DNA of 64,000 nt from an uncultured Gammaproteobacteria bacterium (GCA_964465205.1 CAYXJO010000008.1:2164-66163), one strand, 5' to 3'. Counted from the first letter of the stretch, positions 7,679-59,591 are shown. Notes: a model not told the origin generated them from the letters alone. Made by a program: numbers and translations.

Positions 7679-7684
7679 CGGCCC
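7611..7684 (-). tRNA. tRNA-Ala (anticodon GGC); CCA not encoded
   Basis: Hand-folded cloverleaf: acceptor GGGCCGT/ACGGTCC with the G3:U70 Ala identity pair. D-arm GCTC-AGCTGGCTA-GAGC. Anticodon arm CTTCC-ATGGCAT-GGAAG. T-arm ATCGG-TTCAAAT-CCGAT. Discriminator A. Confidence 0.8.
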
Positions 7685-43105: not shown

Positions 43106-43265
43106 TGTAATAAATTGGTTTACGCGAGGTGTAGAAAGAGAACTCGGGTGAGCTCAATTGAATATTTTGAGTGTTGCTATTTGTGAGTTAAATTAACGAA
43201 TAGATAGGAACAAAGGTACTTTGACATGTATACAAAAACGTTACGTTTTGGAAAAGGAGAATACC

Positions 43266-44345
43266 ATGCTAGGACCAACAGTTCAAAAAGTTGCGACGGT
43301 GGATGAAGTGACTGGCGTCGCGAAGATTCCGCGGGTCAAGAAAAAAGGAAAAAGTATGAGCAAGAGGATTGTCCTCTGGCTCAGAATTGCGTGGTTCGCA
43401 GTGCTGTATCTGGCGTGGCCGCTGTTCAAACGGTGGTTGTCGCCGGCGGCAGTGTTCTTTGTTTATCCGGGGAAGCCCTCGGACAAATACGCCTTCTTCA
43501 CTCCATGGATGGAGAAGCGCTTTCGCCCAGTGTTCCCACTGGGTGTCATGCGCCTGCCCGGCGGTCGCTTGGGTTTGATGATCGCCAAGCCGATCACAAC
43601 CGCGGAAATGGACCTGGATCCATCGTTAGCATTGCAAACGATGGAACAGATCCAAGCCGAGGTGCCGAAGGCCAAGGCGGTGGCATTGGCGGGCCGGTTC
43701 CCTGGTTACGTGCACAAGGCGGGGGGCAGCTTTCCACAACCTTTCGTGCCCGGAATTAATGGAACCGTGTTTGCCATGGTCAGTGCCGCGGACGCGTTGG
43801 CTCAAAAAGCCGGACGCCCGGCTTCGGAGTTGGCCATCGCGGTGCTCGGTGGAGCCGGCACTGTTGGTAGTAAGGTGGTCGAATCAACCAGCCACGCCTT
43901 CAAGAGTGTGGTGGCGTTCGACATCCGCTACGCGGAGGAGAGCACGAAAGGCAATGTGGTATTCAGTAGCGCGCCGCAACGCTTGCGTGATGCCGACGTG
44001 GCCATTGTACTCACCGCCGAAGGTGACCAAGTCGCCGAGCTGGCCCCGTATTTTCGGGCTGGCGCTATCGTCGCGGATGATACCCATCCGTGTATGTATA
44101 GCGAAACACGCCGACTGTTGACGGCACGCGGGGTGGATCTCTATAAGGTTGCCATGGAAGGCGACCTGAGGATGTTCCCGCGATTGCCGAACTTCAACGC
44201 GACCGATGTCCCCGGGTGTCTCCTGGAGGCAGTAACTGTTGCGTTGCGAGGGTGGGAGGTGATTGAGGACCAGGAGGAATTCAATCGCGCCGCTACCGCC
44301 GTTGGCTTCAAGCCGCGGCTGTATCGCCACCCCGACGAGAACTGA
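43266..44345 (+). CDS. GC-rich NAD(P)-binding Rossmann-fold protein with N-terminal TM (putative dehydrogenase); likely horizontally acquired
   Basis: Strong SD AAAGGAGAATACC before ATG at 43266. AVLGGAGTVGSKVV glycine-rich loop. Visibly higher GC than flanking genes. Confidence 0.6.
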   Translation: MLGPTVQKVATVDEVTGVAKIPRVKKKGKSMSKRIVLWLRIAWFAVLYLAWPLFKRWLSPAAVFFVYPGKPSDKYAFFTPWMEKRFRPVFPLGVMRLPGGRLGLMIAKPITTAEMDLDPSLALQTMEQIQAEVPKAKAVALAGRFPGYVHKAGGSFPQPFVPGINGTVFAMVSAADALAQKAGRPASELAIAVLGGAGTVGSKVVESTSHAFKSVVAFDIRYAEESTKGNVVFSSAPQRLRDADVAIVLTAEGDQVAELAPYFRAGAIVADDTHPCMYSETRRLLTARGVDLYKVAMEGDLRMFPRLPNFNATDVPGCLLEAVTVALRGWEVIEDQEEFNRAATAVGFKPRLYRHPDEN

Positions 44346-44389: not shown

Positions 44390-46096
44390 TTGGGAGCCCT
44401 CGTTTTTTTTATTTATAAAAAATCAAAAATGTGCTATGATAATATCTGTATATCAGAATCTATGATATTATTGGATTTTCGTAATGTAGTAGTATTGCTG
44501 TCGTTGGCGGTAAACTTGATCTTGTTGTCCATTATTTATCGCTATGGGCGTAAAACACCGGGAGGCAACGCTTATGCGATTGCAGTTGCTAGTATTGCTG
44601 GCTGGATTTTGCCTATGGTGTTCTATCGTTCAGATTTTTTGAACCAGACTGTTTTGTGGGTGCGTGTTTTGTATATAATGGCGTCGTTTACCTCAACGAC
44701 ATTTTTTTATTTTACTTTAGTTTTTCCCGAAGGGAACAAAATACCTTGGTGGGTACACTTATTTATTGCTATTGAAAATTTGGCGATAGTTGGTTTGTGT
44801 ATTCATCCCGACTGGTTTATTCGAGGCGTTGAATGGGTGGTAAATGATGAAAAAATTATTTTGTGGGGGCCGCTGTATATTGTATACGCGATGCATGTGA
44901 GTTTGTTTTTTTTGGCCGGGTTTGTTGTGCTGTGGTTGAAGATAAATAAACAGCAAACCAAAGAAACAAAGAAACAAATCAAAATGATTTTGTTGGGGTA
45001 CTTTATCGGCGCCAATTTAGCTATGGTCACCAATTTAACTTTGCCTTGGCTCGGTTATTTCAAACTGAATTGGGCGGGGCAGGTGTGCTCTACCGCCCTG
45101 GCAGTATTCTCCACTTATGCGATTTTTAAATATCGTTTGTTGAATATTCGTTTAATCTTGACCGAGAGTTTTGTTTTGGTACTCAACCTGGTATTGTTTG
45201 GACAGTTTTTGTTATCTGGTTCGGTCGGCGTGTTCATCGCTAACGGTTTGATATTGGCCGCTGTCATGATAATCTCTTATGGTTTGATAAAAAGTAGTTA
45301 TAATGAAATATTGCGCAGAGAAGAGCTGGCAGAATTGGCTCATAATTTGGAACGCGCTAATCTACGTTTGCAAGAATTGGATCGCCAAAAAACAGAATTT
45401 TTGTCGATTGCAGCTCACCAACTACGCACACCGCTATCTATTTTGAAAGGCTTCATTGAATTGATCAAAGATGGCGCGTATGGAAAGCCGACCAAAGGCA
45501 TTACCGATTCATTGAATAACATGAATGAGAGTAACGAACATCTTATTAAATTAGTCGATGATTTTCTGGATATTTCACGTATTGAGCAGGGGCGTACTAA
45601 GTATGTGTTTGAGTCCACTGATTTGAATGCTATTATATCTGAGGCGGTACGTGAACTTGCTCCCAAAGCAACTGACAAAAAAATGAAAATAGATTATCGT
45701 AAACACAGAGGGCCATTATTGGTAGTGTTGGATAAAGAAAAAGTTTATAATGTAGTTTATAACTTCGTTGACAATGCTATAAAATATAGCGATATTGGCG
45801 CGATTGTGGTTGATGTAAAATTAGAAGATAGTGGTGTGGCTGTCCGAGTCAGCGACACCGGTGTTGGTTTTGGTAGAGAAGATGAGGCTAATTTCTTCCA
45901 GAAATTCTATCGCGGGAAAAATGTAATTGGCACAAACGTCACCGGTACTGGTTTGGGTCTGTATGTTTGTCGTCGTTTTATTGAAGCACATGGCGGCAAG
46001 GTGTGGGCGCACTCCCCAGGTTTGGGTAAAGGTAGTGAGTTTGGGTTTTGGATACCACTGTCAAATGTTGCCAAAAAAGTTTTGGTTGAGCAGTAG
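44390..46096 (+). CDS. Sensor histidine kinase with polytopic (about 7-TM) N-terminal sensor domain; no cognate response regulator adjacent
   Basis: H-box AAHQLRTPLSILKGF. HATPase_c motifs DNAIKYS, DTGVGF, GTGLGL. Confidence 0.8.
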   Translation: MGALVFFIYKKSKMCYDNICISESMILLDFRNVVVLLSLAVNLILLSIIYRYGRKTPGGNAYAIAVASIAGWILPMVFYRSDFLNQTVLWVRVLYIMASFTSTTFFYFTLVFPEGNKIPWWVHLFIAIENLAIVGLCIHPDWFIRGVEWVVNDEKIILWGPLYIVYAMHVSLFFLAGFVVLWLKINKQQTKETKKQIKMILLGYFIGANLAMVTNLTLPWLGYFKLNWAGQVCSTALAVFSTYAIFKYRLLNIRLILTESFVLVLNLVLFGQFLLSGSVGVFIANGLILAAVMIISYGLIKSSYNEILRREELAELAHNLERANLRLQELDRQKTEFLSIAAHQLRTPLSILKGFIELIKDGAYGKPTKGITDSLNNMNESNEHLIKLVDDFLDISRIEQGRTKYVFESTDLNAIISEAVRELAPKATDKKMKIDYRKHRGPLLVVLDKEKVYNVVYNFVDNAIKYSDIGAIVVDVKLEDSGVAVRVSDTGVGFGREDEANFFQKFYRGKNVIGTNVTGTGLGLYVCRRFIEAHGGKVWAHSPGLGKGSEFGFWIPLSNVAKKVLVEQ

Positions 46097-46213: not shown

Positions 46214-46693
46214 TTATTGTTTGCCGCGAATGTGCCGCGAAATTGCTGAAGCAAGCTTCGCCAGCTCGGCATCGTCCACTCGCGGACCGTCATGCGAGGA
46301 CAAGTAGCCTTCGTAGGTGGTAAAGAACTTTGTGTCCTCAAACAGGATAGGCTTCCACTCGCACATGTTGCCGGTGCCGTGCATCGGTACCAACTTGGTG
46401 TGCGCGTGGTCGACGCCGAAGCCTTCGACGATCATGCCCGTGCGTCCAACATTCGGAAAGAACGTATCCAGATGATGCGCTACCACTTGGGATGCTCGCA
46501 TCAACTTACGATACTGTTCTTTCGGAAGGTCGAATACATAGGACGTGAAGTGGCTTTTTAGCGCCACCACCGTCACTCCTTGGGTGTTGGGGAAAATGGA
46601 CAGGAACGCGATGCAGTCCTCGTCTTCCCAGATGATGTGGCTCGGAATTTCTCCCGCCACGATTTTGCAGAATACGCACTCGCACTTTTCCAT
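46214..46693 (-). CDS. HIT-like (histidine triad) nucleotide hydrolase-family protein, GC-rich
   Basis: N-terminal CVFCKI zinc-binding motif. Degenerate HIT motif VDHAHTKLVPMHG (H-x-H-x-K). Confidence 0.6.
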   Translation of the reverse strand: MEKCECVFCKIVAGEIPSHIIWEDEDCIAFLSIFPNTQGVTVVALKSHFTSYVFDLPKEQYRKLMRASQVVAHHLDTFFPNVGRTGMIVEGFGVDHAHTKLVPMHGTGNMCEWKPILFEDTKFFTTYEGYLSSHDGPRVDDAELAKLASAISRHIRGKQ

Positions 46694-46886
46694 TGTTTGC
46701 TCCTTATGTCAGGTGGTTCGGGTAGCTGTTGAGAAATAGCAATATATTAGTATACCAAATAATGACTTGTCTGTCAATAGTTTTTTGTTCTTGTTAGATT
46801 GAGATTTTTATAATGAGATTGTTTGATAATATTAAAAGAACCCAACCACTGGTGTGGTTGGGTTGGTTGAGCGGTGTCTCATGATG

Positions 46887-47921
46887 TTAGAACTTGTAGA
46901 AACCTTCCGCGTTGGAGCAGAAGATTCTTTCTTTGGCCTCTGCTTGATGGCGAATTGGCAATCGTTCGACAGCTTGCCTAATGGCCGTGAGGGCTTCCCA
47001 ATGCGAGTGTGTCGCTTTGGCCGCCAAGTGTCGGTACTGCCTGTGTTCTGCTGGGTCGGCCCAGTGGTAAGGAATGGCTGTGACAAGTCGTTCGCCCAGT
47101 TTTGGGTGAACATACGATGCCCAACGCACCAGGTGGAATGGTTGGTCGGAGCCAAACATGAGTCGAGTGGTGCCGACCGTATTGAGTGCAAGAGTGACAA
47201 TTTCCGGATCCGGCACCAAGGCGGTGTCGAAGTTGATCTGGTGCAAGCGAGCGAGAACTTGCATCGCCTCTTTGAGTCCAGGTATTACGCGATCTGTGAG
47301 GCTGATGTGAGCCAGGCAGATACGTAATTTGGGGAAATCCCGCACCAATTGCCGTATTTGGTCAAGGCATTGGACGATGTCGGTAGGTGGATGTAGGACA
47401 ATAGGTATGTCCAGATCTTGTGCCGCCTCCAGTATCACAGGAGTGAAGTACTGATAGATATGTGTGGCCGGCGGGTTGAGGTGAAAGTAGTACATTTTCA
47501 GAGCTGACACGCGTGGGTGGTGTAACAGAGCTGTTGTATAGTCTGGATTTTCGGGTATTCCATAGAGCGCTACCCGATCTCGAGCCGGACTGTGTTTGAG
47601 CAAATAGTCGTTCGCGGCTTTTTGATCAAGACCGCGCCATACCCCAGAAAAACGCAAAGTGCGAATTGTCTTGGTGGGGTGGAATAGCCGTTGCCAGTCG
47701 CAGGATTCTTCAATGCTGAAACTGGGAAAGGTGGAGATAATATGGTCGTATGATTCTTGGTCCATCTGTCCGGCGTGTTCTGGTAGGCACGAGTGCGCGT
47801 GGCAGTCAATGATTTGATCGGGAAGCCAGCCTTCGAATTGCTTAATGAATTCTTCTTCTGCTGGCGTCAAACTTCGAGCGTGTTTTAGGTAGTCAACTCG
47901 CGGGATTGGTTGGATAGTCAT
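46887..47921 (-). CDS. Amidohydrolase-2 (TIM-barrel metal-dependent hydrolase/decarboxylase family) protein
   Basis: DCHAHS metal-binding motif. The track ORF start (48335) is an Arg-rich artefact overlapping lysS. I place the start at MTIQPIPRV (47921). Confidence 0.65.
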   Translation of the reverse strand: MTIQPIPRVDYLKHARSLTPAEEEFIKQFEGWLPDQIIDCHAHSCLPEHAGQMDQESYDHIISTFPSFSIEESCDWQRLFHPTKTIRTLRFSGVWRGLDQKAANDYLLKHSPARDRVALYGIPENPDYTTALLHHPRVSALKMYYFHLNPPATHIYQYFTPVILEAAQDLDIPIVLHPPTDIVQCLDQIRQLVRDFPKLRICLAHISLTDRVIPGLKEAMQVLARLHQINFDTALVPDPEIVTLALNTVGTTRLMFGSDQPFHLVRWASYVHPKLGERLVTAIPYHWADPAEHRQYRHLAAKATHSHWEALTAIRQAVERLPIRHQAEAKERIFCSNAEGFYKF

Positions 47922-48024
47922 GTGGCCTCCGACGGTTGGGTGGTTTTGTGAATGAGCGGTTAATTGTGGTATGGCAATTATATTGATACTAAAACACAAA
48001 TTGGTTGGTTTGTAAATACTTCCT

Positions 48025-48059
48025 AAAATAAAAAGGCACAGCGTTTGGAACGCTGTGCC
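48025..48059 (-). terminator. Rho-independent terminator after lysS (GGCACAGCGTT-cca-AACGCTGTGCC + T-run)
   Basis: Read directly. 11-bp perfect stem. Confidence 0.75.
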
Positions 48060-48085
48060 AGAGTAACTGTTGGCGCTGATTTGAA

Positions 48086-49495
48086 CTAGCGCATCAACGG
48101 AAAGAGGATGACGTCGGTCAGGTTGCGCTGATTGGTGAGGATGGCCGTGAAACGGTCGATGCCGATTCCGGCGCCGGACACTGGCGGCATGCCGTATTCG
48201 AGCGAAGCCAAGAAGTCGGTATCGAGGAACATGGCTTCGTCGTCGCCGGTGCCACGCAATGCGGATTGTTCTTCGAGTAAACGCCGTTGCAGACCGGGAT
48301 CGCCGAGCTCGGAATAAGCCTTGGCCATTTCCCATCCGTTCACCAGCACTTGGAAGGCGTCGATGACGCGCGGGTCTTGATCGTTGGGACGGGCGAGTGG
48401 GATTAGCACCGCCGGGTGGTGGAGCAGGAAGGTGGGTTGCACCAACTTGGGGCGCGACACCTTCTTGTACAGCTTGTCGATGAGGTTGCCCAAGGAAATG
48501 CCGGTGGGGATTTCTCCCAGATCGATCTGGTGTTCACGGATGATTTGCAGTAGGTCTTCGACCCGGTCGTAAGCCAGCACGTCGATACCGGAATCTTCCA
48601 ATACCAGGTCGCGGTATTCCACTTCGCGCCACTCGGCGCCGAAGTCCATATCCGTGCCCTGGTAACTGATTTGCAGTGTCCCCAAAACTTCCATCATCAC
48701 GGACCGCATGAGTTCTTGAATGAAGCTCATGTTGTCGCGATAGTTCCAGTACGACGCGTACCATTCGAGCATAGTGAACTCTTGCAAGTGAGAGGCGTCG
48801 ATCCCCTCGTTGCGGAAGTTCTTGCCGATCTCGTACACACGATCCATCCCTCCGACGATGAGTTGCTTCAGGAACGTTTCGGGAGAGATGCGCATGTACA
48901 GGTCGATGTTCTTGGCATCGTGGTGGGTCACGAAAGGATTGGCCGAAGCGCCGCAGGGGTTCTTTTGGAAAATGGGAGTTTCCACTTCCATGAACCGGTT
49001 CTGCTCCAGATGGCGCCGTATCGAAGAGATGGTCTTCGAGCGGGTGTGGAAAATGCGCCTCGCCTCTTCGTTGGCGATGAGGTCAAGGTAGCGTTGGCGG
49101 TAGCGAGTCTCCAGGTCGCTCAAGCCGTGCCACTTTTCCGGCAGGGGCATTTGAGCGGGGGTGAGCAGCTCGACTTGGTCGCACAGAATGGTCATTTCGC
49201 CGCGACGGGTACGGAAGACGTGGCCGGTGGTGCCGACGATGTCGCCCACCTTGACCTCCTTGGTCAGATTGGTGTAGCCGTCTTCGCCCAGATGGGCGGT
49301 GTCTCCAAAACACTGAATCTTGCCATCGCTGTCGGCAATGACAAAGAACGTAGCCTTGCCCATGATACGCATGGCCATCACGCGACCAGGGACAGAGACG
49401 GTGGTGTTTTCAGCCAGCAACATATCAAAGTTGCTGACCACTTCATGAGGCTGGTGGGTTCGCCGAAACGAATCTCGGAAAGTAGCGTTTGCCAT
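48086..49495 (-). CDS. lysS: Lysyl-tRNA synthetase, class II (GC-rich)
   Basis: N-terminal OB fold. Motif 2 FRNEGID...EFTMLEWY. Motif 3 LEYGMPPVSGAGIGIDRF. SD AGGAGA upstream. Confidence 0.85.
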   Translation of the reverse strand: MANATFRDSFRRTHQPHEVVSNFDMLLAENTTVSVPGRVMAMRIMGKATFFVIADSDGKIQCFGDTAHLGEDGYTNLTKEVKVGDIVGTTGHVFRTRRGEMTILCDQVELLTPAQMPLPEKWHGLSDLETRYRQRYLDLIANEEARRIFHTRSKTISSIRRHLEQNRFMEVETPIFQKNPCGASANPFVTHHDAKNIDLYMRISPETFLKQLIVGGMDRVYEIGKNFRNEGIDASHLQEFTMLEWYASYWNYRDNMSFIQELMRSVMMEVLGTLQISYQGTDMDFGAEWREVEYRDLVLEDSGIDVLAYDRVEDLLQIIREHQIDLGEIPTGISLGNLIDKLYKKVSRPKLVQPTFLLHHPAVLIPLARPNDQDPRVIDAFQVLVNGWEMAKAYSELGDPGLQRRLLEEQSALRGTGDDEAMFLDTDFLASLEYGMPPVSGAGIGIDRFTAILTNQRNLTDVILFPLMR

Positions 49496-49506
49496 TGTCA
49501 GTTCTC

Positions 49507-50895
49507 CTATTGAATGGGGTAGAGGATCGTTTCTTTGATGTTGTAAGGCAGATTGCCCAACATCAACATAAGCAGTCGATTGACACCGAGGCCAATACTG
49601 GCGGTCGGTGGCATGCCCAACTCAAGCACCCGTAGGTAATCCTTGTTGAGCGTATTGCCGGTTTCAGTTGCCTGTTGTGCCAGAGCGGACGAGATTTTTT
49701 CCGGATCATTCTCATCGGTGTAAATGTCGGCCAGGAAACAGCCTTGACTGATCAAGAACGAACGTTCGCTGGTGCCGTCCGGATTGTTGTGCACAAACGG
49801 CGACATGCCCGTTGGCAACTTGGTGAGAAAGGTAGGTACGACGATGTGTGGTACGATCAGTTGTTCGACCACTTTCATGAGCCAGGTGAACCTGGTCATT
49901 TGGTGATTGAACGCTTGTGGGAAACGCTCGGTAAGAGCTTCTCGGTTGCAGGTCTGATAGTCTCCCACCCATCGGTCGAACGCTTCTTGGAAAGGCAAGC
50001 GCACAAACGGCGTTTGGTACGAGACCGCTTGGGATTCAGTGCTGTTGTCAGTTTGAAGCATTAGGGTCTTATCGCCCTGACAATCCTGTACCACTGTTGC
50101 CACTATCTCTTCGAGCAGGTTTTCCATGTCAGTGCAACGCGCCTCTGCGGCGTAAGCCTCGAGCATGGTAAACTCAGGTGAGTGAATGTGGTCGATACCC
50201 TCGTTGCGGAATGATTGACCGACTTCAAACACTCGTTCGAATCCACCGGCGATCAAGCGTTTGAGCTTGAGCTCGCTGGTGAGGCTGAGGTGCATTTGTT
50301 TGCCGGTCGCCCGACAGTGCGTAGAGAATGCAGCGGCTTGCCCGGCTTCGAATGTCTCTTGTAGGACGCCGGTTGGGAACTCTCTGAAGCTGTGGGCATG
50401 GAGAGTTTTTCGCATGGCGTGTAAAGTTGTTGATATCTTTTTGACAAACAAGAACACGTCCTCATCTGTCATGAGATATTCAACACGATTGCGGTAGCGT
50501 AAAGCGCTACTCAATCCATGGTGTTTGTCCGGCATCGTGCCGGTGTAGATGAACATCGGCTCAGCATTGGTTACTTGTAAGGTGGGCATGCCAGTACGCG
50601 TCACGATTTTGTGACCGCGTACAGCAATGATGCTACCGAGTGGCAAACCGACCAACTCGGAGTAATTTGGTAACTGGTTGTTGAACATGATTTGAACCTG
50701 ATCCTCTTTGAATCGTGCGCCACAAAAGCAGACTTTGCCAATATGACGCCGACTGAGCAATCGGGCTCTTCCTGTGAACTGGTCGCCATCACGGGCGAGC
50801 GTAAGCAAATCTCCGTTACGCATGACTACCTCCTGGAACGGTTTGGGTTGTTGGTTAGGTTGATTTGTAAAAGGGCCTTTAAATTTCTCCTTCAA
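49507..50895 (-). CDS. Divergent full-length LysRS paralog (class II aaRS-like, function uncertain)
   Basis: Retains OB-fold N-terminus, FRNEGIDHIHSPEFTMLEAY and LELGMPPTASIGLGVNRL. The lysine/ATP-pocket region differs strongly from the adjacent canonical lysS. Confidence 0.7.
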   Translation of the reverse strand: MKEKFKGPFTNQPNQQPKPFQEVVMRNGDLLTLARDGDQFTGRARLLSRRHIGKVCFCGARFKEDQVQIMFNNQLPNYSELVGLPLGSIIAVRGHKIVTRTGMPTLQVTNAEPMFIYTGTMPDKHHGLSSALRYRNRVEYLMTDEDVFLFVKKISTTLHAMRKTLHAHSFREFPTGVLQETFEAGQAAAFSTHCRATGKQMHLSLTSELKLKRLIAGGFERVFEVGQSFRNEGIDHIHSPEFTMLEAYAAEARCTDMENLLEEIVATVVQDCQGDKTLMLQTDNSTESQAVSYQTPFVRLPFQEAFDRWVGDYQTCNREALTERFPQAFNHQMTRFTWLMKVVEQLIVPHIVVPTFLTKLPTGMSPFVHNNPDGTSERSFLISQGCFLADIYTDENDPEKISSALAQQATETGNTLNKDYLRVLELGMPPTASIGLGVNRLLMLMLGNLPYNIKETILYPIQ

Positions 50896-50896
50896 A

Positions 50897-51883
50897 TTAT
50901 AAAACCACTGCCAGTTCTCTCTTCTCGGTGTTCATCTCTACTGAATTTCCGATCGGTAAAGTAAGCATGGGATCTGTGTGACCGAAGTCAACCCCCATGA
51001 TTACCGGGATGGTTAGATTATTAAACACTGTGGTTAGTATGTTTTTTAAATTTTCCGAAGTCACCCCACTCTTATTTTGGAAACGACCAAACACCAAACC
51101 GCGCACTTTTTCCAAATAGTTGGCTTGTTTCATGTGGGTAAGCATGCGTTGAATGGTCGCAATAGATTCTTCCTCATCATCTTCCAAAAATAGTATGGAA
51201 TCATCTAAATCAAACATGTATTTGGTGCCAAATAGTTTGCTCATAGTATTCAAATTACCAGCTACCAGTTTGCCTTGGGCTGTACCCGAATTTATTATTT
51301 GCCAGCCGGTATTTGATGTAAAATTTCTGGCACGCACATCTTCTTTATCCCAAAGCAACATCTCCTCTGTCCAGTTTTCGGAGCTGGGCAGGACATATCT
51401 TTCGCCAGTACCGATTTTTGATAATACTTTTACAAATGATTCTTTGGTAAAGTTTTGGATTTCCGGATATTCCCCAAATTGTGGCAACACCATCGGGCCT
51501 AGCAAACATTTAATGTTGGCTAATCGAGATAGTGCACCGTGCATAACCGTGATGTCACTATAGCCAATAAATGGCTTGGGGTTTTTTGCAATTAAATCAT
51601 AGTTTAGTTTTTCCAGCACATCATTGGCACTATAGCCACCAATGGTAGCCATGATAGCCTTTACCTGCGGATCGGCAAACATATTATTGATGTCGGAAGC
51701 TCTCTGTATTGCTGTGCCGGCAGTAAAGTTTGTTATCGCCGAAACATGCTCGCCTAGTTTTACCACAAAACCCATCGATTCCAGCATTTTTACCCCACGT
51801 TCTAGGCGCTTGGGGCAAAAGCCCGCGATAGGCGCTGAAGGTGAAACTATACCAATTGTATCCCCCTGTTTTAATGTTAACAT
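50897..51883 (-). CDS. Peptidase S66 family protein (LD-carboxypeptidase LdcA / microcin-C immunity MccF family)
   Basis: Size, N-terminal GDTIGIVSPS and central/C-terminal conserved blocks match the S66 fold. Confidence 0.7.
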   Translation of the reverse strand: MLTLKQGDTIGIVSPSAPIAGFCPKRLERGVKMLESMGFVVKLGEHVSAITNFTAGTAIQRASDINNMFADPQVKAIMATIGGYSANDVLEKLNYDLIAKNPKPFIGYSDITVMHGALSRLANIKCLLGPMVLPQFGEYPEIQNFTKESFVKVLSKIGTGERYVLPSSENWTEEMLLWDKEDVRARNFTSNTGWQIINSGTAQGKLVAGNLNTMSKLFGTKYMFDLDDSILFLEDDEEESIATIQRMLTHMKQANYLEKVRGLVFGRFQNKSGVTSENLKNILTTVFNNLTIPVIMGVDFGHTDPMLTLPIGNSVEMNTEKRELAVVL

Positions 51884-51887
51884 AAAA

Positions 51888-52736
51888 TTATTTTTTGGCG
51901 ATAATCAGCAAAGCATTGCTACGACCTACAATATTGGTATCAGCATAATGCGCTAATTCTAGATCTAAGATTTTATCAAAATTATTTGTATCGGTTAATT
52001 TATTGGTGATTTGTTCAGTACTACCGTGCACTTTGGTCTCTTCCATGCCCGGATAAATAAAGTTTGGTCCGCCCAGTACGCGTACCTCGCTAAAACCATT
52101 ATCTAAATAAATTTTGCGGGCTTCGTCGGGGGTGAAGCAATGAATAGCAGGCATGTCATCATTGAATCTGATTTTGGAAGTTGCACGAATGCTGTCTAGT
52201 TCTTTAAGGCGATTCGTGAGAATGGAGAAGTAATAAGCATGGTATTTGTTTACCACAATACTGATGTGCAAACCACCGGTTTTTAATTTTTTTGAAATTT
52301 CACTTAAAGCTTGACCGGGACGTTCCACGAAACTGATTACATTATAAAATGAGATCGACCAGTCAAATTTTTCGTCAGCAATGCTCGACAGGTCTTCAAT
52401 GTTGCCAACCGAACAAGAATATTTTTTGTCCAATCCTTTTTGAATAATTTTTTTCTCTGCCTCGGCTAGCATTTTTGGTGAAATGTCCATTAATTGGCCA
52501 CCGGTAATTTTGTCACCAAATAAATCTTCTAGAACCATAGTCCAGCGACCGGTGCCGGCGCCGGCGTCGAGTAGTTGTACGTTTTTTTTGATGGACAAAT
52601 CGGCGCCCAACTCTTTGTGTAATACGGCTTTAAAAAATTTATCTGATAACACCCAGTATAACTGTTGATCAACATCATCATAGGCTGCGGCCTTTTGGTC
52701 GAAATACTCCACCACGTTTTGATAATAGCTGCTCAT
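51888..52736 (-). CDS. Class I SAM-dependent methyltransferase
   Basis: Motif I LDAGAGTGRW. Confidence 0.75.
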   Translation of the reverse strand: MSSYYQNVVEYFDQKAAAYDDVDQQLYWVLSDKFFKAVLHKELGADLSIKKNVQLLDAGAGTGRWTMVLEDLFGDKITGGQLMDISPKMLAEAEKKIIQKGLDKKYSCSVGNIEDLSSIADEKFDWSISFYNVISFVERPGQALSEISKKLKTGGLHISIVVNKYHAYYFSILTNRLKELDSIRATSKIRFNDDMPAIHCFTPDEARKIYLDNGFSEVRVLGGPNFIYPGMEETKVHGSTEQITNKLTDTNNFDKILDLELAHYADTNIVGRSNALLIIAKK

Positions 52737-52739
52737 ATT

Positions 52740-53858
52740 TTATGGATAAGTAATTATGTTTTTTAATCGTGGGTAGATAATGACATCGCGAATGCTGCTG
52801 CGGCAAAGGGCCCAGGCCAGAAAGCGTTCGATGCCCAAACCAAAACCGGAAGTTGTTTGATAGCCGGGCTGACGTCGTAAGTTAATGTACCATTCATATG
52901 GATCGGCAGATAGATTTTGTCTGCGTAATGAATCAAACATTTCTTCGGGGCGATCTTGTCTTTGTCCGCAACCCAATATTTCACCACCAAAAGATTTGTC
53001 TGTTAGTGCGGGAAAGATTAAATCGGCGTTGATTACCTTATTTAAATTATTGGGATCTGGTTTTTGATAAAACGGCACGCGATCGCGGTCGTAATGTGTT
53101 ATCCAAAATGGCGTTTTGGCCTGTAAAATTTTTGCCAACTCCAACTCTCCTCGTGCGCTAATATCTCGGCCGTGTTCAGTATAGTTGACCTGATTTTGAT
53201 GGCCGTTTTTTTCAAGCAAGCTCACAGCTTCATCAAAAGTTACACGAGGAAATTTATTGGCGATGATTGTATTTTGTAAGGCGGTTTGGGTAATACTGGA
53301 GCAAGTGCCGATTACGTCGACAATATTTGGTAACTGTAGTAATGCATAGCACAAGGTTTTGACGTACTCTTCTATAATCGGAAATAAATCTTCCAAGGGA
53401 GCGCGCATTTCAGCCTCACAATGAAAGAATTGATTCAAATGTCGATCGTCCCAGTCCTCGCCGCGCATTGATGGTAAATAGCAGTACACCAAATTAAGGC
53501 CGTTTAGGAGCAGCGGTTCAAATCCAAATTGCGAAGAATCTGTTAAAAAAGAATGTAAGTTACCAAATTTAATTGGGATGGCGGCGGAATTTGATCCCGG
53601 CCCCATAGGCGAAGAAACACTCGGAGTTAGCATGAATAGGTCGATTTTTTGAGCACCGTGTTTGTTATAAAAATAATCATCGCAGGTGGCTGAAATGAAA
53701 CTTCGCAGAATTAGAAGTGCACGGTAGTATTGATTGTTGGTAAGATGCAAATAATGCTCTTCCGGACTATATGTCGGAAGCGCAAAATCACTCTTATCAG
53801 CATTTTCAAAATGCGTATTTATTTGGGCAGCGTTTTTTAGTTGGTGTTCAGATAACAT
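52740..53858 (-). CDS. Stand-alone class IIb aaRS catalytic-domain protein (AsnA / AspRS-AsnRS-like), no anticodon-binding domain
   Basis: Motif-1-like YRALLILRSFISATCDDYF...LFMLTPS. Motif-2-like MRGEDWDDRHLNQFFHCEAEM. Motif-3 GFGLGIERFLAWAL. Confidence 0.65.
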   Translation of the reverse strand: MLSEHQLKNAAQINTHFENADKSDFALPTYSPEEHYLHLTNNQYYRALLILRSFISATCDDYFYNKHGAQKIDLFMLTPSVSSPMGPGSNSAAIPIKFGNLHSFLTDSSQFGFEPLLLNGLNLVYCYLPSMRGEDWDDRHLNQFFHCEAEMRAPLEDLFPIIEEYVKTLCYALLQLPNIVDVIGTCSSITQTALQNTIIANKFPRVTFDEAVSLLEKNGHQNQVNYTEHGRDISARGELELAKILQAKTPFWITHYDRDRVPFYQKPDPNNLNKVINADLIFPALTDKSFGGEILGCGQRQDRPEEMFDSLRRQNLSADPYEWYINLRRQPGYQTTSGFGLGIERFLAWALCRSSIRDVIIYPRLKNIITYP

Positions 53859-53958
53859 ACCTTAATTATAAATAGTATGATTAACTATGAGTCTACAACT
53901 AATTTTGGTATTTGTCAATCCGCACACCCAACACCCAAAAGTTGGGTTGTATTGGCTA

Positions 53959-54732
53959 TCATCTTCGGATTTTTACTACGATGTATAGCAAAAAAGCAGC
54001 TTTACGAAAAAGGCGGGCAGTAATTTTGTTGAGTTTACTGAATATGCCCACTGGGGTCTCTATGGTGAGGGCACTTCCGACGTAGCTAGTTGTTATTTGT
54101 TCAATGTTTATTTGCAGTTCTGCTGCTGAAATGCGCAAAAGTTCGCGCATTGTGCTTTCGTTGTAATTTTTTTCATCGAGCAGCCGATATCCTTTTATCC
54201 AAAATGTAAATGGTTTTAAAACCTGTAATGATAACAATTTTGCTTTGATTATCGCCGGGGAGAAAAAATTTGGCACACCAATACACAGATATCCATCGTC
54301 GGCAGTTAGTTTTATCATGTTTTTGACGACTTTTTTGGCTTGATCAAAATCATAGTGCTCAATTACACCGGTGTTCCAGCATAAATTAAACCTTTTTTCA
54401 GGTAGTTGCGGGATAAAAATATCTCCGCTGTAGAATTCCACATTATTTACGCGATGATATTGAGCTAGTTGTCGGGAGCAATGTAATGCATTCTGGGAGC
54501 TGTCCAAAAGGGTTACTGTTTTTACTTTGTTTGCTAAACGCAGCGATGAATTCCCGGATCCAGAGCCATACTCTATGATGTTTGAAGTTGCATCCAGTGG
54601 GACATTGTCGAGGGTGAATTTTTCTATTTGGTCATAGCAGTCTACCCACCAATGGTGGTTTATTTCCTGGAATGATTCAACGGGGTGATTTCGCTCAAAT
54701 TCGTGTTCCCAATCCGAAGGAGTGTTTGTCAT
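53959..54732 (-). CDS. Class I SAM-dependent methyltransferase
   Basis: Motif I IIEYGSGSGNSSL. Confidence 0.75.
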   Translation of the reverse strand: MTNTPSDWEHEFERNHPVESFQEINHHWWVDCYDQIEKFTLDNVPLDATSNIIEYGSGSGNSSLRLANKVKTVTLLDSSQNALHCSRQLAQYHRVNNVEFYSGDIFIPQLPEKRFNLCWNTGVIEHYDFDQAKKVVKNMIKLTADDGYLCIGVPNFFSPAIIKAKLLSLQVLKPFTFWIKGYRLLDEKNYNESTMRELLRISAAELQINIEQITTSYVGSALTIETPVGIFSKLNKITARLFRKAAFLLYIVVKIRR

Positions 54733-55767: not shown

Positions 55768-58407
55768 ATGTGTAGGAGGAGGGTCATAATATTTTCTGCT
55801 GCTATTATTAGCAGTTTTTTTGTTTGTCTTAATCCAGTATTTGCAAAAGTGCTAATCGGCGCGGTGGCGCCACAACTATCTACCGCCGAGAATGAATATG
55901 TGGAATTATATAATTATAGTAGCACCAGTGTGAATTTGGCTGGTTGGTCTTTGAAAAAAATAGCCAGCACCGGCTCATCGTCTACGTTGGTTTCGGATTT
56001 TGGCGCTGCCCACATTGTTCCTTTTGGTTATTTTTTGGTGGCGCATAATAATTATTTACCAATTGACGGTGTGGCGGCGGATAAAGTTTATACGGTTAAC
56101 TCTAACAATCTAGCAGCTATAAATAACGGCGTAATTTTAATTGACGACGTCGGTCAATTAATAGATGCAGTATTCTGGGGTAATGTATCCTCGAGTTTGT
56201 TTGTTTCTGGCGTTGCCAATCCTGGTACTAACAAAAGTTTGGTGCGCCGGCCGGATGACGAAACAGGGAATTTTGTGGATTCTGATGATTGTGGTTTGGA
56301 TTTTTTTGAGATTGACCCGATGCCGCGTAATAGTTTGAGTGAAGCGCGGCCGATTTGGATAGTGCCAATCGAAGCCACTACGACCCCGACCACTACCGTG
56401 CCTACCACTACCACTGAGGGCGATGTAGGCACATCTTCTCTTTGGTCAATGTTACGATTGAGTGAAGTGGTGAGCGACCCCAATGAGGGCGATGAATGGG
56501 TTGAGTTGTGGAACGGCGCCAGTAGTAGTTTGGATTTGTCGGGTGGTTTGATTTGTGACAGTCGCGGTATTGACGCCAGCAGTACTGCTTGTAAAGACTT
56601 GTTGGGGGTTATTAGCCCGTTAGATTTTTTTGTATTTTCTTGGGGTGGATATTTTTTGAACAACGACACTCCTGATAGTGTGGTATTGAAAAGTCCCAGT
56701 GGCGAAATAATTGATCGACTAGATTATGGTGATGGTGGGCGAGTAAGTGCGCCCGAAAAAGGCGAATCTTTGGCACGCTATCCAGATGGTATGGGTGATT
56801 GGTGGATTACTACCGATATCACTTCTGGCACAGCGAATCATATTGTGGCACCGACTGTGGGTGGGTCGGGCGGTGGGTCGAATTATTACCCAACTACTCC
56901 AATTGTCTCCAACACCACGACTAAAGTTTTGGTAAAGAAAGATTCTGCCACATTAAGTAAAAAAGACAATAGTATCATTTGGAAAATAACTTACCCCACA
57001 AAAATTATAATTGGTGTTACAACCACCTTTGTTGCTACCGGAACGTTGGATATGCGGGGCGGAAAATTTTCTTTTATTTGGAATTTTGGCGAAGGAGTTA
57101 CTACTACCGGGGCGACACCCGGCGTAGTATTTGTTTCATCTGGCGTACATTATATAAACATTTTTGCAACCAGCACCGCCGGCAGTGTGGGTGAGAAGCA
57201 AATAAAAATAATGGTGTACCCCACTACCACTACTGCTAGTGCGGTAGTGATCAGTGCGGTGTTGCCAAACGAAACCGGCACGGATGACAGTGAATATATA
57301 AAAATAAAAAACACCGGTACCAGCACAACTGATATTTCACGCTGGAAGATTTTGTACAAAAGTGACGTGTACCAAATTCCGGCAAGCACTACCATCATTG
57401 GTGGTGATGAGCTGGTGTTTTACAAAGCGATTACCAAATTTAATTTAAACAATAGCGGTGGTGAAGTGGAGTTGCGAGACGTGAATGATTTTTTGGTGGA
57501 TGTTTTTGGCTACGGCAAAACCAAAGAGGGGGTTGAGATTGTGAGTAGTGCGACGTCGTCGGTAGGTGTGATTAGTAGTTCCACCGGCAAAGTTGCACCT
57601 ATTAAATTGGCCAGAGTGGTTGCTAGTAAAATAGCCAATGCGTATTTAGGTCTGGTTTCGCTGGAACAAGCTCGTGCGGCCGAAGATAATGTGGTGACGC
57701 GGGTGCGTGGTTTGGTGACAGCTTTGCCGGGCGTGTTTGGTAGTCAGTATTTTTATATTTTCGATGGTGTGCAAGGGTTACAAATTTATCAAAACAAAAA
57801 AGATTTTCCCGCTCTGCAGGTGGGTGACGGTGTAGAAGTGTATGGTACTTTGGGCACAGCTTATGGTGCGCGGCGTCTGCGGGTAAAGACCGATAGCGAC
57901 GTGGATATTTTGTCTACCCAGAATTCTATTAAACCTTTGGTGGTCGAGATTTCGGAAATAGATGAATTCAATTTGGGTGCACTTATTAAAATTAGTGGTA
58001 CGATCACCGAGATCAAAAGTAACTTTATGTATGTGGATGATGGCACATCGGAAGCAGTGGTGTATTTCAAAAAGGGTGCGCAAATAGATAAGAAAAGATT
58101 TAAAGAAGGAGAAAATATGGAGGTGGTGGGTGTGTTGGAGAAGGGGAGTAGTGGTTTGCAAATCTGGCCACGTTCCCAAGAGGATTTGGTGTCGTTGGGG
58201 TTGTCCGAAGATTTGATCAAGAGTCAGGCATTGTTACAACAGACACAGAATGACTCCAAGAAAATGGCCGAAACATACCTGACCACTACTGCCGGCGGTA
58301 TTACCGCATTACTTCTGGCATTTTTGGCACGAGCACGTGGGGCGTTAATTGTGGGTGGGGTCAAAAAAGTTGCTCAACTAGCTGTCAAAATTATTGGTCG
58401 AGGATGA
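55768..58407 (+). CDS. Secreted lamin-tail-domain (LTD) repeat protein with OB-fold module and C-terminal TM anchor
   Basis: Three LTD-like modules (EYVELYNYSSTSVNLAGWSL; DEWVELWNGASSSLDLSGG; EYIKIKNTGTSTTDISRWKI). OB-fold-like VTRVRGLVTAL...YFYIFDG. C-terminal hydrophobic helix. Confidence 0.65.
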   Translation: MCRRRVIIFSAAIISSFFVCLNPVFAKVLIGAVAPQLSTAENEYVELYNYSSTSVNLAGWSLKKIASTGSSSTLVSDFGAAHIVPFGYFLVAHNNYLPIDGVAADKVYTVNSNNLAAINNGVILIDDVGQLIDAVFWGNVSSSLFVSGVANPGTNKSLVRRPDDETGNFVDSDDCGLDFFEIDPMPRNSLSEARPIWIVPIEATTTPTTTVPTTTTEGDVGTSSLWSMLRLSEVVSDPNEGDEWVELWNGASSSLDLSGGLICDSRGIDASSTACKDLLGVISPLDFFVFSWGGYFLNNDTPDSVVLKSPSGEIIDRLDYGDGGRVSAPEKGESLARYPDGMGDWWITTDITSGTANHIVAPTVGGSGGGSNYYPTTPIVSNTTTKVLVKKDSATLSKKDNSIIWKITYPTKIIIGVTTTFVATGTLDMRGGKFSFIWNFGEGVTTTGATPGVVFVSSGVHYINIFATSTAGSVGEKQIKIMVYPTTTTASAVVISAVLPNETGTDDSEYIKIKNTGTSTTDISRWKILYKSDVYQIPASTTIIGGDELVFYKAITKFNLNNSGGEVELRDVNDFLVDVFGYGKTKEGVEIVSSATSSVGVISSSTGKVAPIKLARVVASKIANAYLGLVSLEQARAAEDNVVTRVRGLVTALPGVFGSQYFYIFDGVQGLQIYQNKKDFPALQVGDGVEVYGTLGTAYGARRLRVKTDSDVDILSTQNSIKPLVVEISEIDEFNLGALIKISGTITEIKSNFMYVDDGTSEAVVYFKKGAQIDKKRFKEGENMEVVGVLEKGSSGLQIWPRSQEDLVSLGLSEDLIKSQALLQQTQNDSKKMAETYLTTTAGGITALLLAFLARARGALIVGGVKKVAQLAVKIIGRG

Positions 58408-59191: not shown

Positions 59192-59228
59192 AAAATCCGC
59201 GTCGGAGTCCCGACGCGGTATTTTTTTA
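59192..59228. terminator. Bidirectional terminator (CCGCGTCGG-agtc-CCGACGCGG + T-run)
   Basis: 9-bp perfect stem, read directly. Confidence 0.75.
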
Positions 59229-59591
59229 AAGGATTTTTGATTCTAGCATTTCCGGCATAATGCCTTTGCTAAACGAGCATTGTCTGATACAGGTAACCAC
59301 TGCTGCGATCACTTCTTCGGTGTAGCCGGGTAATCTAGTAATTGCGTTTGCGGCAATTTTTGCGCTTTCTTCGGTTTCATTTTTACTTTCATGGCTATTC
59401 TTTTGGTAAACCACAATATCGTGGAATAATGCAGCTGGTACTAGGATATCCATGTTGGCCTTTTCTTTTTTGCCAATCATTTCTACCAAATTAAGTACTC
59501 GAAGTGCGTGTTGAAAGTCATGGCTAGGGTCGTGTTTAATTTGTTTCTCTTCGGCAATCTCTAATAATTTTGCGCGGGTATTTTTTTCCAT
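59226..59591 (-). CDS. Small HD-domain phosphohydrolase
   Basis: H...HD...D pattern (FQHALRVLNLV...LFHDIVV). Confidence 0.55.
   Translation of the reverse strand: MEKNTRAKLLEIAEEKQIKHDPSHDFQHALRVLNLVEMIGKKEKANMDILVPAALFHDIVVYQKNSHESKNETEESAKIAANAITRLPGYTEEVIAAVVTCIRQCSFSKGIMPEMLESKIL

Follow-up and report, generated by a model that had tools for sequence, protein, structure and literature searches.

A recurrent cassette of two aminoacyl-tRNA synthetase-like proteins, a methyltransferase and an MccF-type hydrolase in Patescibacteria, with a possible function in aminoacyl-nucleotide metabolism

The DNA analysed in this study is a stretch of 64,000 nucleotides (positions 2164-66163 of contig CAYXJO010000008.1, assembly GCA_964465205.1, labelled as an uncultured Gammaproteobacteria bacterium). 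This whole stretch is called the window in the following, and positions are counted from its first letter. On its minus strand, eight open reading frames (ORFs), all co-directional, were located between positions 54732 and 46214 (Table 1). The encoded proteins were named with Pfam and NCBIfam models using curated cut-offs. The eight genes and every family assignment of a preliminary description of this block were thereby confirmed. Four parts of the block, namely an asparaginyl-tRNA synthetase (AsnRS)-like core, an S-adenosylmethionine (SAM)-dependent methyltransferase, an MccF-type S66 hydrolase and a second class II aminoacyl-tRNA synthetase (aaRS) paralog, form a cassette. In the window, the last part is a paralog of lysyl-tRNA synthetase (LysRS), here called LysRS-2. 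The cassette is conserved and modular across Patescibacteria (candidate phyla radiation, CPR). Judged from its closest relatives among the compared loci, the window itself probably derives from a Magasanikbacteria-like member of the Patescibacteria.

Table 1. Genes and features of the block and the adjoining kinase gene, with window coordinates
Feature	Position	Strand	Basis or remark
MT_A, SAM methyltransferase	53959..54732	-	Pfam Methyltransf_31/25/11
AsnRS-like, putative adenylating core, 372 amino acids; class IIb aaRS catalytic core without anticodon domain	52740..53858	-	PF00152
MT_B, UbiE-type class I SAM methyltransferase	51888..52736	-	Pfam Methyltransf_11/25/31, Ubie_methyltran
MccF-type S66 serine hydrolase	50897..51883	-	PF02016, PF17676
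LysRS-2, LysRS paralog, 438 amino acids	49507..50823	-	family and residue comparison
lysS (LysRS-1), canonical class II	48086..49495	-	above NCBIfam lysS cut-offs
Terminator-like hairpin and T-run, end of the AsnRS-like-to-lysS unit	48035..48059	-	11-bp stem, 7 GC pairs
Amidohydro_2 protein	46887..47921	-	PF04909, 67 bits
HIT-family protein, 159 amino acids	46214..46693	-	PF01230, 38 bits
HisKA_7TM sensor histidine kinase, 568 amino acids	44390..46096	+	recurrent cassette neighbour

The block had been regarded as one operon with a single terminator behind lysS, which was not borne out. The hairpin on the 3' side of lysS is located 27 nt past the stop codon, and its stem is followed by TTTTTATTTT. 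Hairpins with a T-run were also detected after the amidohydrolase gene (46864-46839) and after the HIT gene (46196-46174), and promoter-like sites lie ahead of the HIT gene (46777-46749), the AsnRS-like gene (53918-53890) and the amidohydrolase gene. The start of the latter was placed at 47921, and it possesses its own TATAAT and Shine-Dalgarno sites 3' of the lysS terminator. MT_A is set apart from the AsnRS-like gene by a hairpin on its 3' side together with the promoter-like site. Due to these hairpins and promoter-like sites, the block is likely composed of about four transcription units. The terminator-like sites are consensus matches only, since the total of the whole scan was no higher than in shuffled sequence (13 sites vs 11.3 expected). 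The AsnRS-like gene, MT_B, the S66 gene, LysRS-2 and lysS probably constitute a tight operon, with spacers of 3, 4, 73 and 11 nt in this order. The start codon of LysRS-2 is the ATG at 50823, preceded by an AGGAGG Shine-Dalgarno sequence; previously, the start had been assumed at 50895. Homologues in the databases likewise comprise 438 amino acids.

For comparison, 100 loci were fetched, which are numbered with the prefix L in the following, and their ORFs were classified by family. Three architectures occurred. T1 has the order AsnRS-like, MT_B, S66, LysRS-2, with an optional radical SAM gene ahead of LysRS-2 and an optional lysS at the end. In T2, the order is MT_A, U378, S66, AsnRS-like, optionally headed by an HD-domain gene, and in T3 it is AsnRS-like, MT_B, optionally MT_C, and S66, with U380 on the opposite strand. 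The copy in the window is a T1 cassette plus a T2-type MT_A, and the radical SAM gene is absent from it. For the linkage counts, a set of 24 non-redundant loci was used in which the AsnRS-like gene has 4.5 kb or more on either side. An S66 gene and a methyltransferase gene were each found in 23 of them and a second aaRS-like gene in 21 (U378 9, LysRS-2 7, U380 5); all three were present together in 20 of the 24 loci. The AsnRS-like gene is the constant and most conserved component. The association outlasts three gene orders, both orientations, inversions and a divergence down to 33-41% identity of LysRS-2. Since it survives inversions and reshuffling at this level of identity, a chance juxtaposition is unlikely. 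The earlier view of a functionally linked, aaRS-centred cluster was thus strengthened, as the set recurs in three gene orders at about 100 loci. NCBI names the aaRS-like proteins merely 'amino acid--tRNA ligase-related protein', and full-text literature searches revealed no description of the cassette, of LysRS or AsnRS paralogs in CPR, or of MccF together with an aaRS paralog. The gene association is robust, widespread and new; its parts all come from known families, and precedents exist for the chemistry proposed below.

Complete T1 cassettes were also observed on short contigs assigned to organisms outside CPR, namely in L101 (JBMXRA010000026.1, labelled Desulfonauticus submarinus), where a transposase fragment and a NUDIX gene were noted as well, and in metagenome-assembled genomes labelled Bdellovibrionales or Gammaproteobacteria (L014, L015, L017, L019). 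Either CPR DNA was mis-binned or contaminates these assemblies, or the cassette was transferred horizontally.

The only Pfam match of the AsnRS-like protein was PF00152; PF01336 was not matched, and the region aligned with the asnS model begins at model position 121. The protein reached neither the asnS cut-offs of NCBIfam (164.9 vs 342.6 and 162.6 vs 414) nor the AsnA cut-off, for which the archaeal model scored best (125.9 vs 389). Its best sequence match in the PDB was the AsnRS of P. horikoshii (1x54, E = 1e-32), whereas the entry of archaeal AsnA (AS-AR, 3p8t) was matched with E = 9e-9 and in the C-terminal third only. The AlphaFold2 (AF2) model (pLDDT 85.5) also had 1x54 as top fold match (TM 0.75), AS-AR was not among the top 50 fold matches, and N-terminal helices were predicted where an OB fold would be. 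AsnA was therefore rejected as a probable identity of the 372-aa protein, whose scores fall short of the AsnA models and whose sequence and fold resemble AsnRS more closely. The former designation as an AsnA/AspRS-like catalytic core held with regard to the core without a tRNA-binding domain, but the closest relative is AsnRS and not AsnA.

The AsnRS-like family comprises more than 120 clusters at 57-73% identity, with a mean column identity of 68%. In 20 diverse members, the motif-2 residue R132, the motif-3 residue R345 as well as E134, D279, E293, E148 and R300 are invariant. D279 and E293 are read as putative Mg ligands. E148 and R300 align with E228 and R364 of P. horikoshii AsnRS, which we take to be the ligands of the Asn side chain. 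Judged from these residues, the protein is a complete adenylation core without tRNA-binding domain, in which all residues for ATP and Mg appear to be kept. Furthermore, two invariant cysteines (C126, C147) lie beside motif 2, and an invariant Gly/Ser-rich loop (SSPMGPGSxS, residues 80-91) is predicted to be flexible (pLDDT <50). The position of this loop corresponds to the region of the amino-acid 'flipping loop' of AsnRS.

LysRS-2 shows 28% identity to the product of the neighbouring lysS and remained below both lysS cut-offs (NF001756, 268 vs 468; TIGR00499, 232.7 vs 427.6). Its family consists of about 52 clusters of 420-440 amino acids; the next matches are canonical LysRS at about 33% identity. 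Every member with a named source is from Patescibacteria, and the majority carries no source name. The AF2 model (pLDDT 89.8) exhibits an OB fold, also with high pLDDT, and a class II core, with TM values of 0.83-0.85 to LysRS structures. The active sites of 52 family members were compared with those of 69 canonical LysRS, using LysU numbering. Glu421, present in 69/69 canonical enzymes, occurs in 0/52 members of the LysRS-2 family (mostly Phe; Asp in 2), and position 414 (E in 59, Q in 10 canonical enzymes) is occupied by F, V, A or I in 52/52. Beside these losses, N424 (68/69 in canonical LysRS) is replaced by D in 48/52, E428 (69/69) by D in 51/52, and L429 (L, Q or I in canonical LysRS) by E in 51/52 members. 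The arginines of motifs 2 and 3 (R262, R480), the lysine pocket (E240, E278, Y280) and F274 are kept, and so is, in 50/50 members, the Arg/Phe/Gln triad of the OB fold (R21/F33/Q44), which in class IIb enzymes presumably binds the anticodon base U35. This pattern suggests that the active site was rebuilt rather than decayed and that both Mg-binding glutamates were lost.

The EpmA model TIGR00462 scored 109.3 on LysRS-2 (cut-off 286.9). An EpmA-type enzyme, which had been considered as an objection to the preliminary description, was rejected because this score is too low, the OB-fold anticodon domain is present and EpmB is absent. A lysS gene adjoins LysRS-2 in 9 of 19 distinct loci, and in the other 10 there is no adjacent lysS. 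LysRS-2 is thus apparently not an EpmA, and it does not look like an ordinary LysRS or a plausible 'resistant' one either.

A degenerate aaRS paralog with a transferase function is known from ascamycin biosynthesis. There, AcmD, an additional AlaRS with the higher resistance of the two, produces Ala-tRNA, while AcmF is truncated, AlaRS-like and has lost residues for the activation of ATP and Ala (N219Q, D232E); AcmF uses Ala-tRNA as donor and places the alanine on the sulfamate amine of a compound that mimics AMP, and the hydrolase AcmE reverses this step (PMC12945691). The residues of LysRS-2 are consistent with the AcmF type, with ATP-site residues lost and the lysine pocket and tRNA-recognition residues kept. 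A similar pattern was found in U378, which takes the place of LysRS-2 in T2 cassettes. U378 has no Pfam match and, as a profile, matches catalytic fragments of AlaRS (1riq, E = 1e-12). The motif-3 Arg is present in 0/24 members and R69 in 24/24. In 22/24 members, Glu occupies the position aligned with the Asp of the 'IDTG' motif in A. aeolicus AlaRS, which we take to be D235 of E. coli AlaRS. This Glu presumably corresponds to D232E of AcmF. With the motif-3 Arg lost, a Glu at the D235 position and R69 kept, U378 would also be of the AcmF type. U380, the paralog of T3 cassettes, gave weak profile matches to HisRS and HisZ (E = 0.0055 and 0.021), and the Arg at the GGGR position of HisRS was found in 0/12 members in a weak alignment. 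Like the AsnRS-like core, U378 and U380 possess no anticodon-binding domain, and neither AlaRS nor HisRS is consistently located beside them. By these residue comparisons, each variable paralog seems to bear a lesion in its ATP/Mg machinery, whereas the constant AsnRS-like core bears none.

The S66 protein showed its highest similarity to MccF. It matched E. coli MccF (3tla) with 200.8 bits (2.9e-58) and MccF-like structures of Bacillus and Listeria with 181-192 bits. LdcA structures were matched with 91.9 bits (5z01, 4e-25) and 63.4 bits (1zrs, 2e-16), and the cut-off of the LdcA equivalog NF008424 was not reached (146.6 vs 378 bits). In the alignment to 3tla, Ser109 corresponds to the nucleophile S118 of MccF and Trp178 to W186; His302 and Glu234 were taken, from the 'GH' and acidic motifs, as the probable remaining residues of the triad. 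Among 72 S66 proteins of the cassettes, the Ser is present in 72, the His in 71, Glu/Asp in 72 and the Trp in 70. The adenine in processed microcin C stacks against W186 of MccF (PMC8323819). On the basis of the scores and the kept Trp, LdcA was rejected, and the question of MccF or LdcA, raised in the preliminary description, can be answered in favor of MccF (200 bits vs at most 92; Trp in 70/72), to which the protein belongs by sequence.

The product of lysS passed both NCBIfam lysS cut-offs (562.3 vs 468 and 518.6 vs 427.6). In all cassette-adjacent copies (window, L007-L010, L019, L022, L029, L049), R412 is changed to A, S or Q, E414 to Q and N424 to K; the changes in the window are R412A, E414Q and N424K. 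R412 and N424 are kept in a CPR LysRS that is not adjacent to a cassette (L018) and in 68 other canonical enzymes. These changes may be peculiar to the lineage, or they may mark resistance to an inhibitor of the kind seen in AcmD. By analogy with ascamycin, lysS is a possible supplier of Lys-tRNA or an AcmD-like copy. If any copy plays the part of AcmD, as donor or as resistant enzyme, it would be this 'canonical' lysS and not LysRS-2.

Methyltransferases of the MT_B family follow the AsnRS-like gene in 48 loci and are the methyltransferase of T1 and T3; in the PDB, MT_B matched generic methyltransferases only. MT_A is 35% identical to the methyltransferases of T2 cassettes and seems to be the type that belongs to this other, AlaRS-like architecture. 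Of the two methyltransferases formerly counted as cluster members, MT_B thus retains this position. In many T1 cassettes, a radical SAM protein of the RlmN/Cfr family (300 amino acids) is encoded between S66 and LysRS-2. It was observed in L011, L014, L017, L018, L040, L045, L070, L096/L097 and L101 (e.g. L097:4167-5090). The protein stays below the cut-off of the RlmN-family model (188.8 vs 290 bits), and it keeps CxxxCxxC and both mechanistic (methyl-transfer) cysteines. The first approximately 80 positions of the RlmN model are missing, i.e. the N-terminal domain, which is presumably RNA-binding in RlmN. Because of this absence, the cassette protein may be an adenine C-methylase acting on a small molecule.

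Additionally, nucleotide-directed genes were found in sister loci (HD phosphohydrolase in 12 loci, NUDIX, HAD, APH-like kinase) as well as genes directed to amino acids or peptides (PurD-like and MvdD-like ATP-grasp proteins, a pyridoxal phosphate-dependent decarboxylase of the ornithine/diaminopimelate (Orn/DAP) type, an alanine-racemase-like protein); further genes encode SDR, SET and Fic proteins. Genuine aaRS genes lie within a few kb in L004, L026, L040, L041, L044, L045, L050, L059, L062, L067, L087, L092 and L099. ProRS, AspRS/ND-AspRS and PheS-alpha were confirmed by profile models; Thr, PheRS-beta, Ala, Ile/Val-type, Glu, Gly and Leu-type enzymes were judged only by eye from their N-terminal sequences. 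Genes of the ProRS/ThrRS type were present in 9 loci. Only lysS has the same specificity as the adjacent paralog.

The cassette most likely builds and breaks an amino-acid-nucleotide compound and does not serve protein synthesis. From the gene content, conservation, residue patterns and folds described above, we infer the following substrates, product and biological role, with a probability of roughly 0.4 for an aminoacyl-nucleotide in whose assembly LysRS-2 acts as a transferase dependent on Lys-tRNA. The cassette would make and hydrolyse an aminoacyl- or dipeptidyl-nucleotide, which mimics an aminoacyl-adenylate. The AsnRS-like enzyme would spend ATP on the activation of asparagine (or aspartate) and thereby give the constant nucleotide-linked core. 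The product of lysS would charge tRNA(Lys), and LysRS-2 would, in the manner of AcmF, move lysine from Lys-tRNA(Lys) to the amine of an adenosine-containing acceptor, which would sit in the retained adenylate site during a transfer without Mg-ATP. As this half-reaction needs no Mg-ATP, it might explain why LysRS-2 is devoid of the Mg glutamates although its lysine pocket, its contacts to adenine and phosphate and its tRNA domain are preserved. In the sister cassettes, the second paralog would add Ala or another amino acid from the respective aminoacyl-tRNA. The methyltransferases, and in sister loci also the RlmN/Cfr-like radical SAM protein, would decorate the product. S66 would cut the aminoacyl-N bond as MccF does, for immunity, turnover or biosynthetic trimming, and the HIT protein here and HD or NUDIX proteins elsewhere may also act on the nucleotide. 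This assignment is favored by the linkage in 24 loci and three gene orders, the interchangeable fourth gene with complementary ATP-site lesions, the kept tRNA-binding triad, the MccF-type S66 with its W186, the neighbours suited to the tailoring of nucleotides and amino acids, and the adjacency of lysS.

Several points weigh against such a transferase pathway. D424, D428 and E429 of LysRS-2 could rebuild a Mg site, in which case adenylation may have been retained. For U380, both the resemblance to HisRS and the alignment of its residues are weak. Neither an exporter nor a precursor peptide nor an MccB/ThiF-like gene recurs with the cassette in the 100 loci. Furthermore, the conservation of the AsnRS-like protein equals or exceeds that of the housekeeping lysS (57-63% identity across CPR classes), which would be uncommon in secondary metabolism; together with the missing exporter, it points to a role in core physiology and away from a classical antibiotic. 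The MccF-like S66 proteins of Firmicutes are mostly uncharacterised, and some perhaps function in the recycling of murein peptides, so that membership in the MccF type is no proof of a nucleotide substrate. Finally, the genuine aaRS neighbours of many specificities are also compatible with plain synteny of translation genes.

Parts of the proposed pathway have counterparts in known systems. The ascamycin genes of Streptomyces sp. 80H647 share with the window a canonical-type aaRS, a degenerate paralog with activation residues lost and tRNA recognition apparently retained, and a hydrolase (lysS, LysRS-2 and S66 in the window); the Glu of U378 at the presumed position of D232E in AcmF belongs to the same likeness. 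In contrast, the paralog of the window is derived from LysRS and of class IIb with an OB fold, whereas AcmF is derived from AlaRS, and the hydrolase is of the S66 MccF type, whereas AcmE is an alpha/beta hydrolase. The cassette also contains no sulfamate or nucleocidin-type genes, its AsnRS-like core and methyltransferases are constant, and its hosts are CPR bacteria.

In microcin C biosynthesis, MccB converts the C-terminal Asn into isoasparaginyl-AMP via a succinimide and a second ATP, and MccF cleaves the product by splitting the amino-acid or peptide part from the nucleotide (PMC8323819). HIT hydrolases cleave the P-N bond of such phosphoramidates (PMC7157772). The window shares with this system an MccF-type S66 with the catalytic triad and the W186 equivalent, a HIT gene nearby, as is MccH in some mcc clusters, and an Asn-type, presumably ATP-activating enzyme as constant partner of the hydrolase. 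It differs in its presumed activating enzyme, which is a class II aaRS core, in its second aaRS paralog and in that MccB/ThiF, MccA, the exporter MccC and MccD/E are not among the genes recurring beside it. An MccB/ThiF-type adenylyltransferase was found neither among the recurrent neighbours of the 100 loci nor among the annotations of the block. No Asn-ending MccA precursor was found, with small ORFs checked by eye in one spacer only; that spacer holds an ORF of 15 codons over the stop codon of MT_A, which does not end in Asn.

Another example is EpmA (PoxA, GenX), a LysRS paralog used outside translation, as is proposed for LysRS-2. For EpmA, the formation of an amide bond by a LysRS-derived active site is established (PMC9437257). 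EpmA comprises about 325 amino acids without an anticodon domain and LysRS-2 438 amino acids with an OB fold; in addition, the Mg-binding glutamates are lost in LysRS-2, and the radical SAM protein of the cassettes is RlmN/Cfr-like and not a lysine aminomutase of the EpmB type. AS-AR and E. coli AsnA correspond to the AsnRS-like protein as AsnRS/AspRS-derived cores without anticodon-binding domain that transfer an adenylate to an acceptor other than tRNA, which is a prediction for the protein studied here. The AsnRS-like protein is larger than AS-AR (372 vs 294 amino acids), has an N-terminal helical extension and the invariant Gly/Ser loop, and is linked to S66, a methyltransferase and a second aaRS paralog.

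Instead of a nucleotide, a macromolecule might be aminoacylated and methylated by the cassette, in the way GluQRS glutamylates queuosine in tRNA(Asp) and EpmA adds beta-lysine to EF-P. LysRS-2, in which the anticodon OB fold and the U35 triad are kept, would then dock on a U35 tRNA, the AsnRS-like enzyme would attach Asn or Asp to a residue or a nucleoside, from which S66 would take the modification off, and the methyltransferases or the RlmN-like enzyme would perform the methylation. The radical SAM protein of sister T1 cassettes indeed belongs to a family of RNA adenine C-methylases, similarities to SET-domain and PrmC-like methyltransferases exist in some loci, and the very strong conservation of the AsnRS-like protein and the closeness of the cassettes to real aaRS genes would fit a role linked to translation. 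We nevertheless regard this as unlikely, since the AlaRS-like, HisRS-like and AsnRS-like proteins are devoid of an anticodon-binding domain, the RlmN-like enzyme is devoid of the N-terminal domain of RlmN, LysRS-2 fails as a member of EpmA with an EpmB-type aminomutase absent, and the adenine-stacking Trp of S66 and the HIT, HD and NUDIX neighbours suit a free nucleotide better. Salvage or editing of cell-wall peptides is quite unlikely. In that case, S66 would be an LD-carboxypeptidase acting on murein tetrapeptides or UDP-MurNAc-peptides, and the aaRS paralogs would serve as ligases by which amino-acid-auxotrophic CPR cells restore or attach Asx, Lys or Ala in stem peptides or cross-bridges (e.g. 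of the L-Lys-D-isoAsn type). These are the amino acids of Lys-type stem peptides and iso-Asn bridges, alanine-racemase-like and Orn/DAP-decarboxylase-like genes lie inside some cassettes, and a housekeeping role would suit the broad conservation. The S66 family includes LdcA and the murein LD-carboxypeptidases, with which the window protein has the fold and the catalytic triad in common, but it is far closer to MccF (200 bits) than to LdcA (at most 92), fails the equivalog NF008424 (146.6 vs 378) and keeps W186, the loop tryptophan of MccF. Moreover, Mur, Fem and Mpl genes do not recur in the cassettes, the radical SAM, HD, HIT and NUDIX neighbours would be left unexplained, and we know of no aaRS-like ligase in murein synthesis.

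The preliminary description had interpreted the block as a cluster for a LysRS-targeting compound, with LysRS-2 as the inhibitor-resistant, tRNA-charging copy. A second LysRS homologue next to lysS and an MccF-type hydrolase and a HIT protein in the cluster gave reason for this, and for albomycin, mupirocin and indolmycin it is established that a duplicated aaRS confers self-resistance (PMC9437257). In these cases, too, an extra aaRS homologue (SerRS, IleRS and TrpRS, respectively) lies beside genes of aminoacyl-adenylate chemistry, but it stays a full, active synthetase. LysRS-2 fails both lysS equivalog cut-offs, its family has Glu in 0/52 members at E421 (Asp in 2) and in 0/52 at E414, and no lysS adjoins it in 10/19 loci. 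In sister cassettes, it is replaced by AlaRS-like and HisRS-like proteins reduced to the catalytic domain, which cannot charge tRNA for translation. Such truncated substitutes could not stand in for a housekeeping enzyme; in ascamycin, moreover, the resistant copy is the canonical-looking one. This interpretation was therefore abandoned as very improbable. Mere synteny of unrelated housekeeping genes (AsnA, LdcA, methyltransferases, lysS) in a streamlined genome is very unlikely, even if each of the gene families has housekeeping members, CPR genomes are small and gene-dense, and archaeal AsnA is likewise an AsnRS/AspRS core without anticodon domain (PMC9437257). The association outlasts three gene orders, both orientations and a decrease of LysRS-2 identity to 33-41%, the AsnRS-like protein remains below the cut-offs for AsnA and shows the greater likeness to AsnRS, both by sequence and by fold, and the fourth slot, where filled, is always taken by an aaRS paralog with ATP-site lesions.

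The assembly of an aminoacyl-nucleotide with LysRS-2 as transferase could take a more specific form, which we consider doubtful: CPR bacteria might make non-hydrolysable analogues of aminoacyl-adenylates, namely N-acyl phosphoramidates similar to processed microcin C or phosmidosine, without MccB or a precursor peptide. The AsnRS-like core would convert Asn and ATP to isoasparaginyl-N-AMP, which the MccF-type S66 would trim to adenosine 5'-phosphoramidate. The ATP-site-defective paralog (LysRS-, AlaRS- or HisRS-like) would load an amino acid from aminoacyl-tRNA onto this amine, and the methyltransferase would cap the product. Phosmidosines carry O-methyl and prolyl groups. They exemplify that phosphoramidate nucleotide antibiotics exist (PMC6429109). 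If this route were true, the products would be a family of swappable aaRS inhibitors, with lysS as donor and possibly as resistant copy, and they could be a general tool of episymbionts against their hosts.

Non-translational aaRS paralogs (AsnA, EpmA, GluQRS, AcmF, SbzA) are rare, and each of those known revealed new enzymology. Here, two of them are coupled in one cassette, one apparently with an intact adenylation site and the other disabled at the ATP site, and the disabled slot is swappable between Lys, Ala and His types. Furthermore, the cassette is widespread in a huge, uncultured and metabolically minimal radiation with little-known interaction chemistry. If its product is an aminoacyl-nucleotide, chemistry of the AcmF type would reach beyond AlaRS and Streptomyces, MccF-type hydrolases would gain a native partner pathway, and a programmable family of aaRS inhibitors and a candidate effector of the relations between CPR bacteria and their hosts would be indicated. 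Even if the target were tRNA, protein or murein, the cassette, which encodes four soluble enzymes, would be a conserved CPR trait for which no description was found.

The HIT and amidohydrolase genes of the block are only occasional neighbours of the cassette. The HIT protein, a possible phosphoramidase, scored 40 bits with the HinT-like NCBIfam model (cut-off 130). A homologue with 53% identity is located divergently and upstream of the cassette in L001 and L006, and a weaker HIT gene follows the cassette in L032. Its inclusion in the cluster is thus supported by this recurrence beside the cassette (L001, L032) and weakened by its position beyond the terminators. Amidohydrolase homologues occur 3-5 kb from the cassette in L055 (T2) and L099 (T3); as the gene of the window also lies beyond a terminator, its former assignment as a tailoring enzyme of the cluster was not upheld. 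The HisKA_7TM kinase shows 54.5% identity over 321 C-terminal residues to a kinase family present in 19/100 loci, which reflects either regulation or synteny.

With regard to base composition, the GC content at third codon positions (GC3) is 0.745 in lysS (z 3.1, the maximum of the window), 0.688 in the HIT gene, 0.60 in LysRS-2 and 0.546 in the amidohydrolase gene. The AsnRS-like gene, MT_B, S66 and MT_A have values of 0.39-0.42, which are ordinary here (window mean 0.464, sd 0.089). The step in GC3, including the GC3-rich LysRS-2, recurs in the relatives L022 and L001. Since these relatives are only 59-71% identical, the step is not the result of a recent import. The LysRS, HIT and amidohydrolase genes are GC-richer (0.546-0.745), as had been noted, but the AsnRS-like, methyltransferase and S66 part is native in composition. 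A foreign origin, formerly assumed for the block, could accordingly apply to LysRS-2, lysS and HIT and not to this core, and a recent import of the whole block was rejected.

GC3-rich genes (0.60-0.75) alternate with genes of native composition, e.g. the histidine kinase gene (44390-46096, GC3 0.41). Beside the latter, a plus-strand ORF of 374 amino acids (43221-44345) has a GC3 of 0.667 and no Pfam match.

An Rfam scan of the whole window at the gathering threshold, in which riboswitch and T-box control was looked for, yielded four tRNAs only. In a PADLOC search for anti-phage systems, the aaRS paralogs, S66 and the amidohydrolase were unmatched, and the matches of the methyltransferase and HIT proteins were generic.

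Divergently from the block, a predicted surface protein of 879 amino acids with three lamin-tail domains, a PKD domain and a weak OB-fold match is encoded on the plus strand (55768-58407). An apparently truncated HD-domain ORF of 121 amino acids (59226-59591, minus strand) is 47% identical to the HD phosphohydrolase of 215 amino acids that heads T2 cassettes, and it adjoins a histidine-phosphatase gene (59604-60221). At the other side of the window, the ORF of a large serine recombinase (6089-7678, plus strand) ends over a tRNA-Ala gene (7610-7684, minus strand), beyond which two giant minus-strand ORFs of 2055 (7724-13891) and 1305 amino acids (14002-17919) are located. An integrated element may have its boundary at this site. 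Recombinases related to this one were observed near the cassettes of L020, L031, L092 and L094.

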